DNA from: an uncultured Alphaproteobacteria bacterium
GTDB lineage: Bacteria > Pseudomonadota > Alphaproteobacteria > HIMB59 > GCA-002718135
DNA length: 64,000 nucleotides
Assembly: GCA_902530685.1 (NCBI GenBank)
Contig: CACAAZ010000002.1
Span: 2,103 to 66,102, forward strand
Reading direction: 5' to 3'
Shown: piece by piece, positions 37,517 to 45,244 of the stretch
How the letters are laid out: each line of letters begins with the position of its first letter
How positions within the stretch are numbered: the stretch's first letter is position 1
Notes under the pieces: generated by a model
What the model was told of the DNA's origin: nothing
Database searches by the model: none
The model's input: the letters and a program-made list of their open reading frames with translations, nothing else
Position numbers and translations under genes: made by a program

Positions 37517-38839
37517 ATGGCAATAGAATATTTAAAAAAAGGATTAGATGAAAAACAAAGAATTGAAGATAATGATAAAGTAAAAAAAATTGTTGAGGAA
37601 ACATTAAGTAAAATTGAGTCAGAAGGCGATAAACATATTAGAGAGTTATCTCAAAAATTTGATAACTATTCTCCAGATAGTTTTCGATTAAGTGAAGATC
37701 AAATTAATCAATTAATGAGTGAAGTCTCTGATGATGACAAAGAAGATATAAAATTTGCTCAAAAACAAGTGCGATCATTTGCTGAAGCACAACTCAAAAC
37801 TTTAAGTGAATTAGAAGTAGAAACGCATCCAGGTGTGATTCTTGGTCATAAAAATATACCAGTACAAGCAGTTGGATGTTATGTCCCTGCAGGAAAATTC
37901 CCAATGGTAGCTTCTGCCCATATGTCAGTTGTTACTGCCTCTGTTGCTGGTGTACCAAGAATAGTAGCCACTACTCCACCTTTTAAAGGTAAACCAAATC
38001 CAGCAGTTGTTACAGCAATGAAAATGGGAGGTGCTCACGAAATTTATGTCTTAGGAGGAATGCAAGGAGTTGGTGCGATGGCTATTGGTACAGAAACAAT
38101 TAAACCTGTAGATATGCTTGTTGGACCCGGCAATGCATTTGTTGCTGAAGCAAAAAGACAATTGTATGGCAAAGTTGGTATCGATTTATTTGCTGGTCCA
38201 ACTGAAACAATGGTTATTGCAGATGAAACTGTTGATGGTGAAATATGTGCAACAGACTTATTAGGACAAGCAGAACATGGATATAATTCTCCTGCAGTAA
38301 TGATAACAAACTCAAGAAAACTTGCAGAAGAAACATTTAAAGAAATTGATAGAATTTTACAAATTTTACCTACTAAAGAAACAGCAAGTACTAGCTGGAG
38401 AGATTATGGAGAAATGATTTTATGTGATACTTATGAGGAGATGTTGTCTAAAGCAAATGATATAGCCTCAGAGCACGTTCAAGTTATGACAAAAAAAGAT
38501 GATTGGTTTTTAGAAAATATGACATCTTATGGAGCTCTATTTTTGGGTGCTAGAACTAATGTTGCTAATGGTGATAAAGTCATAGGTACTAACCATACTC
38601 TTCCTACTAAAAAAGCTGGAAGATATACTGGTGGTTTGTGGGTCGGTAAGTTCATTAAAACCCACACTTATCAAAAGATTACAACCGATGAAGCAGCTAC
38701 ACTTATTGGAGAATATGGATCAAGACTTTCACACCTTGAGGGATTTATTGGTCACGCTGAACAATGTAATGTTAGAGTGAGAAGATATGGTGGACTTAAT
38801 ATTGAGTATGGGAAACCAGCATCAAAAATAAAAAATTAA
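37517..38839 (+). CDS. histidinol-dehydrogenase-family NAD-dependent dehydrogenase (HisD paralogue; HpsN-like candidate)
   Basis: HisD hallmark blocks [32 protein letters not shown] and EGFIGHAE; located outside any his-operon context. Confidence 0.8.
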
Positions 38840-40710
38840 ATTTTATTATATTGTTTTAAATAAAGGATGACCTCATCTGCTAATTCTTCTGCAGATTTTA
38901 TTTTTGTTTCCAAAACAATTTCAGGTGATGACGGTATTTCATAATTTGAGTCAATCCCAGTAAAATTTTTTAATTTGCCAGATCTAGCTTTTTTATACAA
39001 ACCTTTTGGATCTCTTTTTTCACACTCCTCTATTGAGGTATCAACATATATTTCTATAAATTCATCACTCTCTAGTAATTCACGAGCCATTTTTCTTTCA
39101 GAATTAAAAGGTGAAATAAAAGAAACAATTGTTATTAGTCCAGCATCAACCATTAATCTAGATACTTCTGAAATTCTCCTTATATTTTCAACACGATCTA
39201 CATCTGTAAATCCTAAATCTTTGTTTAATCCATGTCTCACATTGTCACCGTCTAATAAGTAAGTATGTTTTCCTAGTTTATGTAACTTTTGCTCAATTAT
39301 ATTAGCTATAGTAGATTTTCCTGACCCTGATAATCCTGTAAACCATAAAACACATGGCTTTTGCCCGTTAATAGAGGATCGTAAGTTTTTATTTATTGAC
39401 ATTTGATGCCATGAAATATTTGATGCTCTTCTTAGTTCATGCTCAATAACACCTGCTCCTACAGTTTGATTATTGAATTGGTCAATTATTACAAAACTTC
39501 CTAATTTTTTATTATTTTTATAGGGATTAAAAATTGTATTTTTATTTAATGCAACTTTGGCATATCCAATTTCATTCAAGTTTAAAAATTTTGAAGCAAT
39601 TTTTTCGAATGAATTTATATTTATTTTATGAACTAAATCTGTGATCTTTCCTATTGTTTGAAAGTTTATAAATTTAAAGATATAATTTCTTTCAGGTATC
39701 ATATGTTCTTTATTCATCCAAATTATATGGGATGCAAATTGATCAGATAAAAAATAATTATGATTTTTAACAGAGCATAATAATTCACCTCTAGAAATAT
39801 CAACTGCTCTATCTAATGTTAGTGTTACCGCTTGCTCTTTAACGGCAAAGTCACTCTCTCCTTTTGGAGTTAATATTTTAATAATTTTAACTTTCTCTTT
39901 ACTTGAAAGGACATGAACCTCATCATTAACTTTTATTTTTCCTGAAGTGATTGTACCGCTATATCCTCTAAAATCAGAGCTTGATCTATTAACAAATTGA
40001 ATCGGTAATGAAAAAATTTCTTCTTCTAAAGATTCATTTAGACTAATTTCTTCAAGTTCATCTATTAAAGATTTTTCATTGTACCAGTTTATGTTTGAAT
40101 TTTTTTGAAATACATTATCACCAACTAATGCAGATATTGGAATAAACTTTTGTAAATTAAATTTAAATTCACTAGAAAATTTTTTAAAAGAAGAAATAAT
40201 ATCTTTAAATTTTTTTTGATCATAATTAATTAAATCCATTTTATTTACCGCAACTATAATATTTTCAATTCCAAGAAGAGATAAAATAAATGTGTGTCTT
40301 TTAGTTTGGTCAAGAATACCTTTAGTTGCATCAACTAATATAATTCCAACATCTGAGTTCGATGCTCCTGTAACCATATTGCGAGTGTATTCCTCATGGC
40401 CAGGAGTATCAGCAATAATAAATTTACATTTTTCAGTCTCAAAATAACGATAAGCAACATCTATAGTTATTCCCTGCTCTCTTTCAGCTTGTAAACCATC
40501 AATTAATAATGCTAAATCAATTTGCTTACCTTGTGTTCCATACTTTTCACTTTCAATCTTAATTTGAGTTAGCTGATCACTATAAATATTTTTTGAATCA
40601 AATAATAGTCTGCCAATAAGTGTTGATTTACCATCATCTACGGAACCACAAGTTAAAATTTTTAATTGTTTTTTATTATTTTGATTTTGAAAAAAAGTTT
40701 CTATATCCAT
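38836..40710 (-). CDS. cysNC: bifunctional sulfate adenylyltransferase subunit 1 / adenylylsulfate kinase
   Basis: GTPase motifs [17 protein letters not shown] and NKMD; C-terminal APS-kinase P-loop [11 protein letters not shown]. Confidence 0.9.
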
Positions 40711-41609
40711 TAAAAATAACCTTCTTGTTTTTTTTTCTCCATAGATCCAATTTGATCATTATCAATTAATCTTCCTTGTCTTTCTGAATATTTTGACTCT
40801 AGTAATTCAATAATGATTTCTTCAACATTAGTTGCATCAGACTCCACAGCGGCAGTTAATGGATAACAGCCCAATGTTCTAAATCTTACTTTTTTTTGTT
40901 CTATTTTTTCATTTTCCCTAATTTTTAAACGATCATCATCAACCATAATCATCATATCATTTCGTCTAATAACTGATCTTATTTTGGAAAAATATAACGG
41001 GACAAGTGGAATATTTTCCTGATAAATGTATTGCCAAATATCTATTTCAGTCCAATTAGATAATGGAAAAACTCTAACACTTTCATCTTTATCTATATTA
41101 GTATTGAACAAATTCCAAAGCTCTGGTTTTTGATTTTTTGGATCCCAACGATGTTTTTTGTCTCTGAATGAAAAAATTCTTTCTTTTGCTCGTGATTTTT
41201 CTTCGTCCCTTCTCGCACCTCCAAATGCAGCATCAAATTTATATTTATCTAATGCTTGAATTAATGACTGTGTTTTCATTATATCTGTATGAATTTTTGA
41301 GCCACTAGAAATAGGATTTATATTATTTCGCACCCCTTCTTTGTTAATATGAACCAATAAGTCTAAATTATACTTCTTAACAGTCACATCTCTAAAGTTT
41401 ATCATTTCTTTAAATTTCCAAGTTGTGTCTATGTGCATTAATTTAAATGGAATTTTATTTGGATAAAAAGCTTTTTGAGCTAAATGGAGCATTACTGATG
41501 AATCTTTTCCAATCGAATAAAGCATTACAGGATTTTCAAATTCAGCTACTACTTCTCTGATTATATGAATGCTTTCAGATTCTAGTTTTTCAATATGTGA
41601 TAATTTCAT
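40710..41609 (-). CDS. cysD: sulfate adenylyltransferase subunit 2
   Basis: [35 protein letters not shown] and [10 protein letters not shown]. Start placed at MKLSH (ATG 41607..41609); the longer ORF reaches 41636. Confidence 0.9.
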
Positions 41610-41610
41610 G

Positions 41611-42414
41611 CTAATCTGCTTTTGATAAATTTCCATAAGCTATAAAATCAGGATTTAAAATATCTTCTTTAGTATTGTATAAAATATCTTTGTTATCAAT
41701 TGTTTTCAATTTTCCTCCTGCTTCTTCTAAAATAATATGACCAGCAGCTATATCCCATTCGGAAGTTGGTCCCAATCTTGGATAAATATCAGCCTCACCC
41801 TCAGCAAGGATGCAAAACTTAAGAGAACTACCGATTGTGATTAGTTCAAAATTCGTAAATTTTTTTTCTACCCAATTCTGAAAATCTTTACTCGAATGTG
41901 ATCGACTACCAATAACCCTAGTAGTTATATTTTTCTCTTTTTTTATATTTATTTTATTAAAATCTTTTAAAGTACTTAAATTTGAATTAGTTTTTAATTT
42001 ATAACATCCATTATTTTTAAGTGCATAGTATAAAATAGATTTTGCAGGAGAATAAATTATTCCAAAAATTGGATAATTATTTTCAATCAATGAAATATTG
42101 ACCGTAAACTCTCCATTTCTATTTATAAATTCTTTTGTTCCATCTAGAGGATCTATAAGCCAATATGTATTCCAATCTTTTCTATTTTCCCAACTAACTA
42201 AACTTTCTTCACTCAAAATTGGGATGTTTGGCTCGAGTCTTTTTAATCTGTTAACTATTAAATTATTTGAATTTATATCAGCTTGTGTAATTGGTGATTT
42301 GTCTTTTTTAGAATTAACAATAATTTCATTATCATAGATCTTAAGTATTTCTCTTCCTGAATCTATTGCAATGTTTAAGAGTTCTAAAATTCGTTTTTCA
42401 TGGTTAAGTTTCAT
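41611..42414 (-). CDS. cysQ: 3'(2'),5'-bisphosphate nucleotidase
   Basis: Inositol-monophosphatase-fold motifs [13 protein letters not shown] and [16 protein letters not shown]; sits in the cysD/cysNC context. Confidence 0.8.
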
Positions 42415-42421
42415 TTTTAAA

Positions 42422-43333
42422 TTAAATAAAGATAAAATATATATAACAAGCGTATAATATTAGACCTATACTTCCATAAATTCTTCCTATTTTTTTTACA
42501 AAGAACATAAAGCCTAAGGTTATAAAGGTAATTAAAAGCATGAAAAGTAAGTCTTGTGTGGCTATTATTTGTGGCATTGAAAATGGTCCAAAAAAAGAAC
42601 TGATACCTAATACACCAAGTACATTGTAAATATTTGAACCTAAAATATTACCAAGAGCAAAATCAACTTTTCTCTTTATAGCTGACATTATACCTACTAC
42701 TAATTCTGGTAGTGACGTTCCAAAGGCGATTATTGATAATCCAATTACAGCTTCTGAAACATTGAAATAATTTGCAATGCTAATAGCTGAGTTTACAAAT
42801 AATTCAGATCCATATATTAAAAATATAATTCCAATTAAAATTAAGAATATAGATAAAATCGTTGAATATTCACTTTTTTTTATTTCTTCTAAATCTAATG
42901 AGCCTTTTTTAAATTGTAGATACATAATTAAAATTAGCAAAATCATTGAAACAATTCCAAATAAGTAATTAAAATATAAAAAACTCATTAGAATTAAAGC
43001 GACTCCAAGACCTATGTTTATCCAAGCTTGATTAATTTGATTTTTAGTCACGTTAGATATTGGTAAAATAACAGCGGTAGCTGCCATAACTAATATTAAA
43101 TTTGCAATATTACTTCCAACTACCGCTCCAATTGCTAGATCTGCATGATTATTAATAACAGCATTAATGCTACTAGCTAATTCAGGTAATGAAGTGCCGC
43201 CAGCAACAATAACAACACCAATTGCAAATAATGAAATATTTAATTTTTTTCCAAAACTAACTGAGCCTTTTATAACTATTTCTGCACCAGCAACTAAAAG
43301 CAACAAACCTATAATTAGATATAAAAGATCCAC
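42422..43333 (-). CDS. CaCA-family cation/Ca2+ exchanger (YrbG-like)
   Basis: Two alpha-repeat motifs, GTSLPELASS and GTSLPELVVG, in a ~10-TM protein. Confidence 0.8.
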   Translation of the reverse strand: MDLLYLIIGLLLLVAGAEIVIKGSVSFGKKLNISLFAIGVVIVAGGTSLPELASSINAVINNHADLAIGAVVGSNIANLILVMAATAVILPISNVTKNQINQAWINIGLGVALILMSFLYFNYLFGIVSMILLILIMYLQFKKGSLDLEEIKKSEYSTILSIFLILIGIIFLIYGSELFVNSAISIANYFNVSEAVIGLSIIAFGTSLPELVVGIMSAIKRKVDFALGNILGSNIYNVLGVLGISSFFGPFSMPQIIATQDLLFMLLITFITLGFMFFVKKIGRIYGSIGLILYACYIYFIFI

Positions 43334-43340
43334 TAATAAA

Positions 43341-45110
43341 TTACTGAATAACTGTGTCTTTAGGATCTATGCCAGCAACCTCAACAGGAGCTTTCATAGC
43401 ATCTCTTCTAAATGGTTCTCCAAGCTCTTGATTAAGCATTACTTCTATAAAAGTTGTAGTGCCTTCCATTTGCTCTTTGCATGAAAGCTTTAAAGCTTCA
43501 GTTAATTCTTCCTGTGTGTTAACTTTAATTCCTTTAAATCCACAAGCATCAGCAATTTTTGCATAGCTAAGTTTAGGATCAAGTTCAGTACCAACAAAAT
43601 TATTATTGTACCAAAGAGTTGTATTTCTTTTTTCTGCACCCCATTGATAATTTCTAAAAATAATCATTGTTATATTTGGCCACCCTTCTCTATTGCATGA
43701 TGTCATTTCACTCATACTAATTCCGAAAGCACCATCTCCAGCAAAACCAACTACTGGAGTGTCCGGACAGCCTATTTTAGCGCCAATTACCGATGGAAAT
43801 CCATAGCCACACGGGCCAAACAAACCAGGAGCTAAATATTTTCTTCCATTTTCAAAAGTTGGATAAGCATTCCCAATTGCACAATTGTTTCCTATGTCAC
43901 TAGAAATTATTGCATCTTCTGGTAATCCTGCTTGAATTGCTCTCCACGCCATTCTTGGAGACATCTTTTCGGGATCTCTATCTCTTGAATCTTTATTCCA
44001 GGAAGTTCCTGGATCATCATCTTCGTGATCAAGTCCGGTTAAGGTCTGTAACCAAGATGATTTAGTTTGATGAATTAAATCTTCTCTCTCTTTTCTATGA
44101 TCATTTCCTGCATCAGTAGAGAGATTTTCTAATATTTGCTTTGCTACTAATTTTGCATCACCACAAATACCAACACTAATTTTTTTTGTAAGTCCAATTC
44201 GATCAGAGTTAATATCTACTTGAATTACTTGTGCATTTTTTGGCCAATAATCGATTCCATAACTAGGAAGAGTTGAAAAGGGATTAAGTCTGGTTCCAAG
44301 AGCAAGAACTACGTCAGCTTTAGAAATAATTTCCATTGCAGCTTTTGAACCATTGTAGCCTAAAGGGCCAACTGCAAGACGATGCTTACCTGCGAAACTA
44401 TCATTGTGTTGATAGCCACATGCAACAGGAGCACTTAATTTTTCCGCAAGATTTTTACAATCTTCAATTGCATCTGCCAAAATAACTCCAGCTCCAGATA
44501 AAATAACTGGAAATTTTGCTTTAGATAATAAATCAGCTGCTTTTTTTATTGCCTCTGATCCTCCAGAAGGTCTTTCAAATTTGATTATTGGTGGGATCTC
44601 GATTTCAACAACTTGAGTCCAAAAATCTCTTGGAATATTTATTTGAGCAGGAGCTGATCCCTTAATTGCTTTAGAGATAACTCTATTTAAGACTTCAGCT
44701 ACTCTTGATGGATCTCTAACTTCTTCTTGATAGCAGACCATATCTTTAAATAAATTCATTTGTTCTACTTCTTGAAATCCACCTTGACCAATAGTTTTAT
44801 TTGCTGCCTGTGGTGTCACAAGTAGCATTGGTGTATGGTTCCAATAAGCTGTTTTGATTGGAGTAACTAAACCAGTAATACCAGGACCGTTTTGAGCAAT
44901 ACACATTGCAATTTTGCCTGTTGATCTAGTATAACCATCAGCCATAATTCCACCATTGGACTCATGAGCCACATCCCAAAATTTAATTCCAGCTTTAGGA
45001 AATAAATCAGAGATTGGCATAAAAGCTGATCCTATAATACCAAAGGCATGTTGTACTCCATGTTTTTGAAGAACTTTTACAAAAGCCTCTTCAGTTGTCA
45101 TTTTAGGCAT
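43341..45110 (-). CDS. xsc: sulfoacetaldehyde acetyltransferase
   Basis: 589-aa ThDP enzyme. MPKMTTEEAFVKVLQKHGVQHAFGIIGSAFMPISDLFPKAGI and QNGPGITGLVTPIKTAYWNHTPMLLVTPQAANKTIGQGGFQEVEQ match Xsc as I remember it. ThDP motif GDGAFGISMSE. Confidence 0.85.
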   Translation of the reverse strand: MPKMTTEEAFVKVLQKHGVQHAFGIIGSAFMPISDLFPKAGIKFWDVAHESNGGIMADGYTRSTGKIAMCIAQNGPGITGLVTPIKTAYWNHTPMLLVTPQAANKTIGQGGFQEVEQMNLFKDMVCYQEEVRDPSRVAEVLNRVISKAIKGSAPAQINIPRDFWTQVVEIEIPPIIKFERPSGGSEAIKKAADLLSKAKFPVILSGAGVILADAIEDCKNLAEKLSAPVACGYQHNDSFAGKHRLAVGPLGYNGSKAAMEIISKADVVLALGTRLNPFSTLPSYGIDYWPKNAQVIQVDINSDRIGLTKKISVGICGDAKLVAKQILENLSTDAGNDHRKEREDLIHQTKSSWLQTLTGLDHEDDDPGTSWNKDSRDRDPEKMSPRMAWRAIQAGLPEDAIISSDIGNNCAIGNAYPTFENGRKYLAPGLFGPCGYGFPSVIGAKIGCPDTPVVGFAGDGAFGISMSEMTSCNREGWPNITMIIFRNYQWGAEKRNTTLWYNNNFVGTELDPKLSYAKIADACGFKGIKVNTQEELTEALKLSCKEQMEGTTTFIEVMLNQELGEPFRRDAMKAPVEVAGIDPKDTVIQ

Positions 45111-45244
45111 ATTTACTCCCTTAAAACCATAACATCCCTATATTATATTAAACAATAAATGAACTATAATAATTTCATAAGTTTATTTAGATTGTTATAT
45201 AAAAGTATTATTAAAGAATTACCGACTTTTTTAAGGTTGCTAAA

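Follow-up and report, generated by a model that had tools for sequence, protein, structure and literature searches.

A probable 3'-phosphoadenosine 5'-phosphosulfate supply module abutting xsc in a marine HIMB59 alphaproteobacterium

Why should a gene for sulfonate cleavage run almost without a gap into genes for sulfate activation? The question is raised by a 64,000-nucleotide stretch of DNA (hereafter the window) from an uncultured alphaproteobacterial assembly (GCA_902530685.1, contig CACAAZ010000002.1, positions 2,103 to 66,102). On the minus strand of the window, xsc, encoding sulfoacetaldehyde acetyltransferase, is followed by a gene for a cation antiporter of the CaCA family and by cysQ, cysD and cysNC, with gaps of 7, 7 and 1 nucleotides (nt) and a final overlap of 1 nt. 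The products of Xsc are sulfite and acetyl phosphate. The initial annotation of the window took the five genes for one transcription unit and proposed either that sulfonate-derived sulfur is channelled into 3'-phosphoadenosine 5'-phosphosulfate (PAPS) for sulfation, or that the genes form a partial assimilation route. The answer that we prefer, with moderate confidence, is that the window holds a PAPS-supply module of the NodPQ/RaxPQ kind, accompanied by CysQ, which is set in an old locus for adenosine 5'-phosphosulfate (APS) and PAPS downstream of xsc and came to abut xsc through the loss of a dehydrogenase gene of the GMC family. CysD and CysN would convert sulfate to APS, and the fused CysC domain APS to PAPS. 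Sulfotransferases encoded elsewhere in the genome would consume the PAPS and CysQ would turn the by-product 3'-phosphoadenosine 5'-phosphate (PAP) into AMP, the sulfate coming presumably from seawater via the SulP permease. As for the history of the locus, the genus would have acquired cysD-cysNC once, in the slot that follows cysQ. Loss of the convergent GMC gene would have produced the gap-free string with xsc in a few lineages, and the copy in the window would then have been assembled by homologous recombination inside cysD.

Genes were identified from the list of open reading frames (ORFs) of the window, with NCBIfam models judged against their curated cut-offs and a cross-check with Pfam. 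All five earlier identities stand, each above its curated cut-off and with Pfam in agreement (Table 1), and direct reading of the junctions confirmed the gene order, the gaps and the overlap. The TAA of xsc is followed after 7 nt by the GTG of the CaCA gene, whose stop is in turn followed after 7 nt by the ATG of cysQ. The TAG of cysQ lies 1 nt before the ATG of cysD, and the last A of the cysD TAA is the first A of the cysNC ATG. Xsc matches its equivalog model over the full length and contains all three domains of thiamine pyrophosphate enzymes (PF02776, PF00205 and PF02775). In the antiporter, whose transported ion is a prediction, Na_Ca_ex is found in two stretches and two GTSLPEL alpha-repeats are readable in the sequence. 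CysQ is set apart from its inositol-monophosphatase relatives, the HisN and SuhB models remaining far under their cut-offs. The cysD ORF was listed as 40710-41636 (308 residues); because the family match begins only at residue 9-10, the ATG at 41609 is the likelier start. CysNC contains the Pfam domains APS_kinase (230.5 bits) and GTP_EFTU (149.7 bits). Both parts of a CysD/CysN-CysC sulfate activation complex, CysD (an ATP pyrophosphatase of the PAPS_reduct fold) and the GTPase–APS kinase fusion, are thus present above their cut-offs.

The organism belongs to the order HIMB59/AEGEAN-169, family GCA-002718135, and not to SAR11 or Pelagibacterales proper. In this order (formerly SAR11 subclade V), the single-amplified genome AG-891-K05 is the reference for genomospecies GCA002718135-1.A (PMC10734472). 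The SAR11 framing given to the locus at first, after Tripp et al. 2008, therefore fails as to lineage and applies by analogy only. Our assembly (1.05 Mb, 45 contigs) is 56% complete, so that genome-wide absences in it alone are weak evidence. Its relatives are GORG-type single-cell genomes labelled 'uncultured Alphaproteobacteria'. The comparison covered 116 genomes of the family (11 of high quality), with 104 species in the genus and seven other genera, within an order of 187 genomes (22 of high quality, one complete). Two genomics papers on AEGEAN-169 (PMC10308909, PMC11366302) are silent on sulfur and on cys and apr genes, and none of the papers searched ties xsc to cysQ/cysDN in SAR11-like bacteria.

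What is the PAPS used for? No cysH, sulfite reductase or sulfotransferase gene lies within the five-gene span. In the family, the cysH model TIGR00434 is over its cut-off in none of the 116 genomes, every weak match coinciding with cysD, and in this genome PF01507 matches cysD only. The NIR_SIR domain of sulfite reductases is found in 0/116 genomes of the family and 0/187 of the order, including the 22 high-quality genomes and the complete one; a control search was positive in 11 of 14 model genomes. With these counts the reading as a partial assimilation route is effectively excluded. Sulfotransferases of the PAPS type are common. Sulfotransfer_1 occurs in 94 of the 116 family genomes, including 11/11 high-quality and 39/44 cysD-bearing ones, and Sulfotransfer_3 occurs in 82. 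This genome (G000) encodes two such enzymes on contig C7: a 301-residue PF00685 protein (81.2 bits), whose best matches in the Protein Data Bank (PDB) are cytosolic SULTs and the Teg12/14 antibiotic sulfotransferases, and a 570-residue fusion of TPR and PF13469 sulfotransferase domains (104.2 bits). Both genes stand among housekeeping genes, on a contig other than that of the five-gene string. Because the reductive genes are absent and sulfotransferases are common, the most plausible use of the PAPS from CysDNC is sulfation, and on this point the earlier proposal is supported. The same part of contig C7 also encodes, between rsmB and purH, a heparinase II/III-like protein of 510 residues (L197:13082-14614). 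The distance from its gene to that of the TPR-sulfotransferase is 1.6 kb and to that of the 301-residue sulfotransferase 3.8 kb, all within an otherwise housekeeping stretch.

PAPS supply of this kind has precedents. NodP/NodQ of Sinorhizobium meliloti and RaxP/RaxQ of Xanthomonas oryzae are homologues of CysD and CysN-CysC that provide PAPS to NodH and RaxST. As in these systems, CysD and a fused CysN/CysC would serve sulfation here and not reduction, and PAPS-dependent sulfotransferases are encoded in the same genome. In contrast to them, there is no assimilatory pathway at all, the sulfotransferase genes are unlinked, cysQ and the CaCA gene belong to the module, and xsc is adjacent. Mycobacterium tuberculosis, with CysDNC, CysQ and Stf (PDB 4rfv, 'Bifunctional enzyme CysN/CysC'), also combines CysD and a CysN-CysC fusion with removal of PAP by CysQ as a partner of the sulfotransferases. 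However, mycobacteria also reduce activated sulfate, which this order cannot do, and direct adjacency of cysQ is a feature of the present locus, of some Stappiaceae and of Halomonas.

Outside the family, cysQ adjoins cysD-cysNC in Stappia, Hongsoonwoonella, Halomonas and two metagenome-assembled genomes, and at none of about 24 outside loci does xsc or a CaCA gene lie within 10 kb. The sister family, the only one in the order with isolates, carries cysD in 56 of its 71 species. In its complete genome of 1.41 Mb, cysQ adjoins cysD and cysNC in divergent orientation, and the neighbours are priA, an xerC-like gene, atpH and panC. CysD of the sister family has a form of its own, a frame of about 486-497 residues with an N-terminal extension of about 190 residues that has no Pfam match (L209:9086-10546 in G116); most of the 56 species have CysD in this extended form. 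PAPS synthesis together with CysQ is thus a common trait of this non-reducing order. Adjacency to xsc is peculiar to the present genus, because cysQ already sat there.

How did the module come to lie beside xsc? Within the family, xsc is a core gene, found over its cut-off in 93 of the 116 genomes and in 11/11 of those of high quality. Maps of 60 loci obtained with tblastn show a fixed frame around it. uvrC is divergent from xsc; the CaCA gene, cysQ and a variable slot lie downstream. The slot is bordered by a convergent hisD-like gene in all of its states, with SnoaL and cupin genes beyond. cysQ occupies this locus with or without cysDNC and is the fixed anchor of the slot. The CaCA gene is found downstream of xsc in genera g1, g2, g6 and g7. 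Its retention beside xsc and cysQ across at least four genera is a separate observation: phosphatases of the CysQ family are inhibited by Ca2+, Na+ and Li+, and a cation-homeostasis link to CysQ is conceivable.

The slot between cysQ and the hisD-like gene has three alternative states. It is filled by cysD-cysNC in 44 species, cysD being an accessory gene of the 104 species of the genus that is absent from the family's other seven genera. In 46 species it holds an APS-kinase-like ORF of 137–143 residues overlapping a nucleotidyltransferase-like ORF of 131 residues (the mini pair). The third state, shared by all seven other genera and 11 species of this one, consists of a 116-residue ORF, aprA, aprB and a QmoC/AprM-like gene, plus a version of the same kinase-like/nucleotidyltransferase pair, of 164–180 residues. 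cysD never occurs together with the mini pair (44 species with cysD, 46 with the mini kinase, 0 with both), nor with aprA. Neither cysD nor a kinase-like match was seen in 14 species, and the completeness of all of these is 53–88%. In basal lineages, the aprA, aprB and QmoC/AprM-like set stands between cysQ and the mini pair (L073:14066-17603 in G002; L085:15674-19222 in G111), and in at least two genera aprMBA lies 7–13 kb from xsc. On our reading, the module lies beside xsc because this family has long kept cysQ and genes that handle APS in the region downstream of xsc.

In the pair, a kinase-like ORF of 137–164 residues overlaps its partner by 8 nt, and the partner is of the HxGH type (L074:7479-8280 in G050; L073:17728-18610 in G002). 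The mini kinase matches models of adenylyl-sulfate kinase only, in end-to-end alignments that score below the cut-offs; it reaches 30.9 bits with Pfam APS_kinase (cut-off 21.1). Among solved structures its closest relative is an APS kinase (E = 4e-4), followed closely by nicotinamide riboside kinase, and the partner weakly resembles NMN adenylyltransferases. When aligned to the CysC domain of the window, the mini kinase shows an intact P-loop and has retained most of the positions that contact substrate, but the lid is missing. These features make an APS-kinase origin likely, and the pair could be either a miniature PAPS-forming pair or a nicotinamide riboside kinase/NMN adenylyltransferase pair for NAD salvage. 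Sat together with a stand-alone CysC was also considered as the PAPS route of the cysD-less genomes and was rejected, Sat being present in only 3 of the 116 family genomes and a true stand-alone APS kinase in 4.

Sulfite oxidation by a reverse APS reductase, AprBA with its membrane anchor AprM, has been reported for SAR11 and for other sulfonate degraders. Sat is the usual partner of AprBA and frees sulfate from APS. Basal members of the family resemble these systems in that aprA, aprB and a QmoC/AprM-like gene occupy the cysDNC slot beside cysQ. The window differs from them, as does every cysD-bearing relative, by having no aprA, and the family differs by the rarity of Sat. Sat, which would turn APS over to sulfate in the aprMBA lineages, is missing from 113 of the 116 genomes, this one included.

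The uninterrupted string is itself rare. xsc and cysD share a contig in 35 genomes, always on the same strand. The spacing between them is 1.8 kb, as in the window, in 6 genomes, 3.46 kb in 13, about 7 kb in 3, 10.5–11.5 kb in 4, 15–17 kb in 4 and 24 kb in 5. The string is uninterrupted in only 6 of the 35, and the other 29 contain a GMC gene on the opposite strand, kb-scale inserts (4–20 kb) or both. Consequently, the idea of xsc and the cys genes as a meaningful conserved transcription unit is not supported. The region from xsc to the hisD-like gene measures 5 to 29 kb among the relatives, and in the larger spacing classes unrelated cargo (Rieske oxygenase, OYE flavoprotein, CMD protein) is inserted between the CaCA gene and cysQ. 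Commoner than the arrangement of the window is a compact unit of four genes, CaCA-cysQ-cysD-cysNC, preceded by a 73-nt spacer of its own. The invariant core is cysQ-cysD-cysNC.

The GMC gene encodes a choline-dehydrogenase-like flavoprotein of 537 residues and lies between xsc and the CaCA gene, convergent with xsc (L041:10694-12307 in G079). It is carried by the 3.46-kb class and by most cysD-less genomes. Because it is present in at least four genera, we regard it as the ancestral state. Genes for a DctPQM TRAP transporter accompany it in some genomes (GMC and TRAP region L053:10039-14983 in G060). A direct junction, in which the TAA of xsc is followed after 7–8 nt by the GTG of the CaCA gene, is found in seven species: that of the window and G097, G100, G069, G071, G031 and G032. 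GMC-bearing genomes show the same CaCA start context after the 73-nt spacer. Relocation of the GMC gene in the junction-type genomes was considered and rejected; only paralogues of 43–45% identity remain in them, so that the gene was lost and not moved. Judged from these sequence comparisons, the xsc–CaCA arrangement of the window is a derived one, produced by loss of the GMC gene. In the isethionate/taurine clusters of Ruegeria pomeroyi and Cupriavidus, xsc is found with iseJ, for a flavin-dependent isethionate dehydrogenase, and with iseKLM, for a TRAP transporter (PMC4334477, PMC6453916). Most relatives of the window similarly flank xsc with a convergent gene for a flavin (GMC) dehydrogenase, some adding DctPQM. 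The window, in contrast, has no dehydrogenase gene there, and the usual partners of xsc, pta and TauE-type exporters, are outside the string. From the gene layout and from secondary descriptions of IseJ, the GMC protein may be IseJ-like, and its loss in the window and six other species may mean that one route into sulfoacetaldehyde has been lost.

The spacer shared with uvrC is the sole sizeable non-coding stretch upstream of the five-gene string. The genes are co-directional, the gaps between them are too short for promoters or terminators, and no credible terminator was found. A terminator scan picked up a single weak site, within cysQ, where chance predicts 2.9, and 41 promoter-like sites were found against 43.4 expected in this AT-rich DNA. 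These counts are at or below chance and are uninformative either way. At the other end, the stop of cysNC overlaps that of the hisD-like gene. The 7-nt junction suggests that in the window read-through from xsc probably accounts for at least part of the transcription of the module. Such co-transcription is neither conserved nor required.

The copy in the window is also mosaic. In sliding-window comparisons, nucleotide identity to the GMC-less G097 is 88–96% on the xsc–CaCA–cysQ side, and identity to the GMC-bearing G039 is 68–77% there. On the cysD–cysNC–hisD-like side the window is 94–98% identical to G039 and 73–86% to G097. The breakpoint thus joins two haplotypes of the locus that differ by about 20% in nucleotide sequence on either side. 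In a tree of CysNC, the genus is monophyletic with 100/100 support and a long stem, and its sub-clades follow the spacing classes; the window groups with G079/G039 and not with the other 1.8-kb genomes. The sharp switch in identity and the tree therefore indicate that the five-gene string was not inherited as one block. They argue that cysDNC was acquired once in the genus, diversified there and was exchanged by homologous recombination. A recent foreign donor of cysDNC was rejected, the nearest CysNC outside being 51-57% identical and the clade of the genus standing on its long stem.

Table 1. Positions in the window of the five-gene string, its borders and the breakpoint
Feature	Position	Strand	Basis and remarks
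hisD-like gene, convergent, fixed downstream border of the slot	37517..38839	+	TIGR00069 430.9 bits
cysNC, fused CysN GTPase and CysC APS kinase (APS, then PAPS)	38836..40710	-	624 residues; NF004035 897.3 bits (cut-off 715)
cysD, sulfate adenylyltransferase small subunit	40710..41609	-	TIGR02039 502.6 bits (cut-off 396.6)
Recombination breakpoint, 5' part of cysD	41400..41500		sliding-window nucleotide identity
cysQ, 3'(2'),5'-bisphosphate nucleotidase (PAP to AMP)	41611..42414	-	267 residues; TIGR01331 284.8 bits (cut-off 228.8)
YrbG-type CaCA cation (Ca2+/Na+) antiporter gene	42422..43333	-	303 residues, GTG start; TIGR00367 199 bits (cut-off 179.65)
xsc-stop/CaCA-start junction, 7 nt, apparent scar of the missing convergent GMC gene	43334..43340	-	junction comparison among relatives
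xsc, sulfoacetaldehyde acetyltransferase	43341..45110	-	589 residues; TIGR03457 950.8 bits (cut-off 676.4)
Divergent spacer xsc/uvrC, 134 nt	45111..45244		sequence read; uvrC by family model

Several observations weigh against a PAPS-supply module set in an old locus. No sulfotransferase gene was found in any of the 60 xsc/cysD loci mapped, and no sulfated product is known. Sulfotransferases are also present in genomes without cysDNC and hence do not depend on it specifically. The persistence of APS/PAPS genes near xsc across genera hints at a functional link, which we treat as largely historical. Finally, in an assembly of such completeness aprA and other genes could be missed, yet aprA is absent from every relative that carries cysD.

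That xsc adjoins CaCA-cysQ-cysDNC might also be without functional meaning at any evolutionary depth, a mere by-product of a recombination-prone region in a streamlined genome. The wide range in length of the region, its unrelated cargo, the TRAP transporter genes among it, and the breakpoint inside the cluster all speak for such hitch-hiking. What makes us think it unlikely is the content of the slot. All three occupants, AprMBA, CysDNC and the APS-kinase-like protein with most of its contact residues, are APS-related, and aprMBA, whose substrate is the sulfite that Xsc releases, recurs 7–13 kb from xsc in at least two genera, as would hardly be expected of random cargo. A more specific, and tentative, view takes the ancestral locus for a dedicated hub from sulfite to APS to PAPS. 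AprMBA would form APS from Xsc-derived sulfite and AMP, the lid-less APS-kinase-like enzyme would convert the APS to PAPS for sulfotransferases, and CysQ would return PAP to AMP. The cysD-cysNC pair of the window would have taken over this function later, so that sulfate instead of sulfite became the sulfur source while the locus and, in this lineage, co-transcription with xsc were kept. We would give this scheme only a small share of our confidence.

Could xsc and the cys genes instead form one functional operon, in which sulfite from Xsc is oxidised to sulfate and then activated to PAPS, so that sulfation is tied to sulfonate catabolism? The 7-nt junction of the seven species has no room for an independent promoter outside coding sequence, and APS/PAPS genes are close to xsc in several genera. 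Against this stand the rarity of the uninterrupted string, broken in most relatives by the opposite-strand gene or by inserts, and the sister family, where cysQ/cysDNC lie far from any xsc. The enzymes for the oxidation are also wanting. aprA is found neither in this genome nor in any of the 44 relatives with cysD. A SorA-like protein (442-444 residues) occurs in 15 family genomes only, 5 of them cysD-bearing, and SoeA was not found in the five best cysD genomes. A molybdenum sulfite oxidase was rejected as the missing link: the Oxidored_molyb protein that is widespread in these genomes proved to be MsrP, encoded next to MsrQ. A 917-residue molybdopterin enzyme, likewise rejected as a sulfite oxidase, is formate dehydrogenase alpha, and the other match to a molybdopterin domain (about 683 residues) is, by its size, probably NuoG. 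Two or three genes for TauE-family exporters are present in each of the five best cysD genomes, and a SulP permease in 4 of the 5. Sulfate is abundant in seawater. Were sulfite exported and seawater sulfate taken up, no link between Xsc and CysDN would be needed, and we consider the coupled operon improbable. For genomes of the cysDNC type, which have MsrP and formate dehydrogenase as their molybdenum enzymes, SulP, and neither AprA nor SoeA, the channelling of sulfonate-derived sulfur into PAPS was thus not borne out; an echo of that idea survives in the relatives with aprMBA between cysQ and the APS-kinase-like gene.

Cryptic assimilation, in which PAPS would be reduced by an unrecognised reductase and its sulfur then assimilated, is very improbable even though in many bacteria assimilation canonically begins with CysDNC, since the family has no cysH beyond cross-matches of CysD, NIR_SIR is missing throughout the order up to its complete genome, and Xsc already gives sulfite for which there is no sulfite reductase.

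The comparison removes the tempting inference that sulfonate cleavage and sulfate activation form one conserved operon. The replaceable APS/PAPS slot, holding aprMBA, the mini kinase pair or cysDNC, constitutes a natural experiment on the role of the mini pair. If the ancestral locus was indeed a hub, sulfonate sulfur would enter sulfation with no need for an ATP sulfurylase. HIMB59/AEGEAN-169 bacteria abound in oligotrophic oceans. The whole order is without sulfate reduction, yet roughly half its species are equipped for GTP-driven PAPS synthesis, and most species encode sulfotransferases. Sulfated molecules are therefore to be expected in this order, and they may be of importance for dissolved organic sulfur in the sea and in the chemistry of cell surfaces or signalling.

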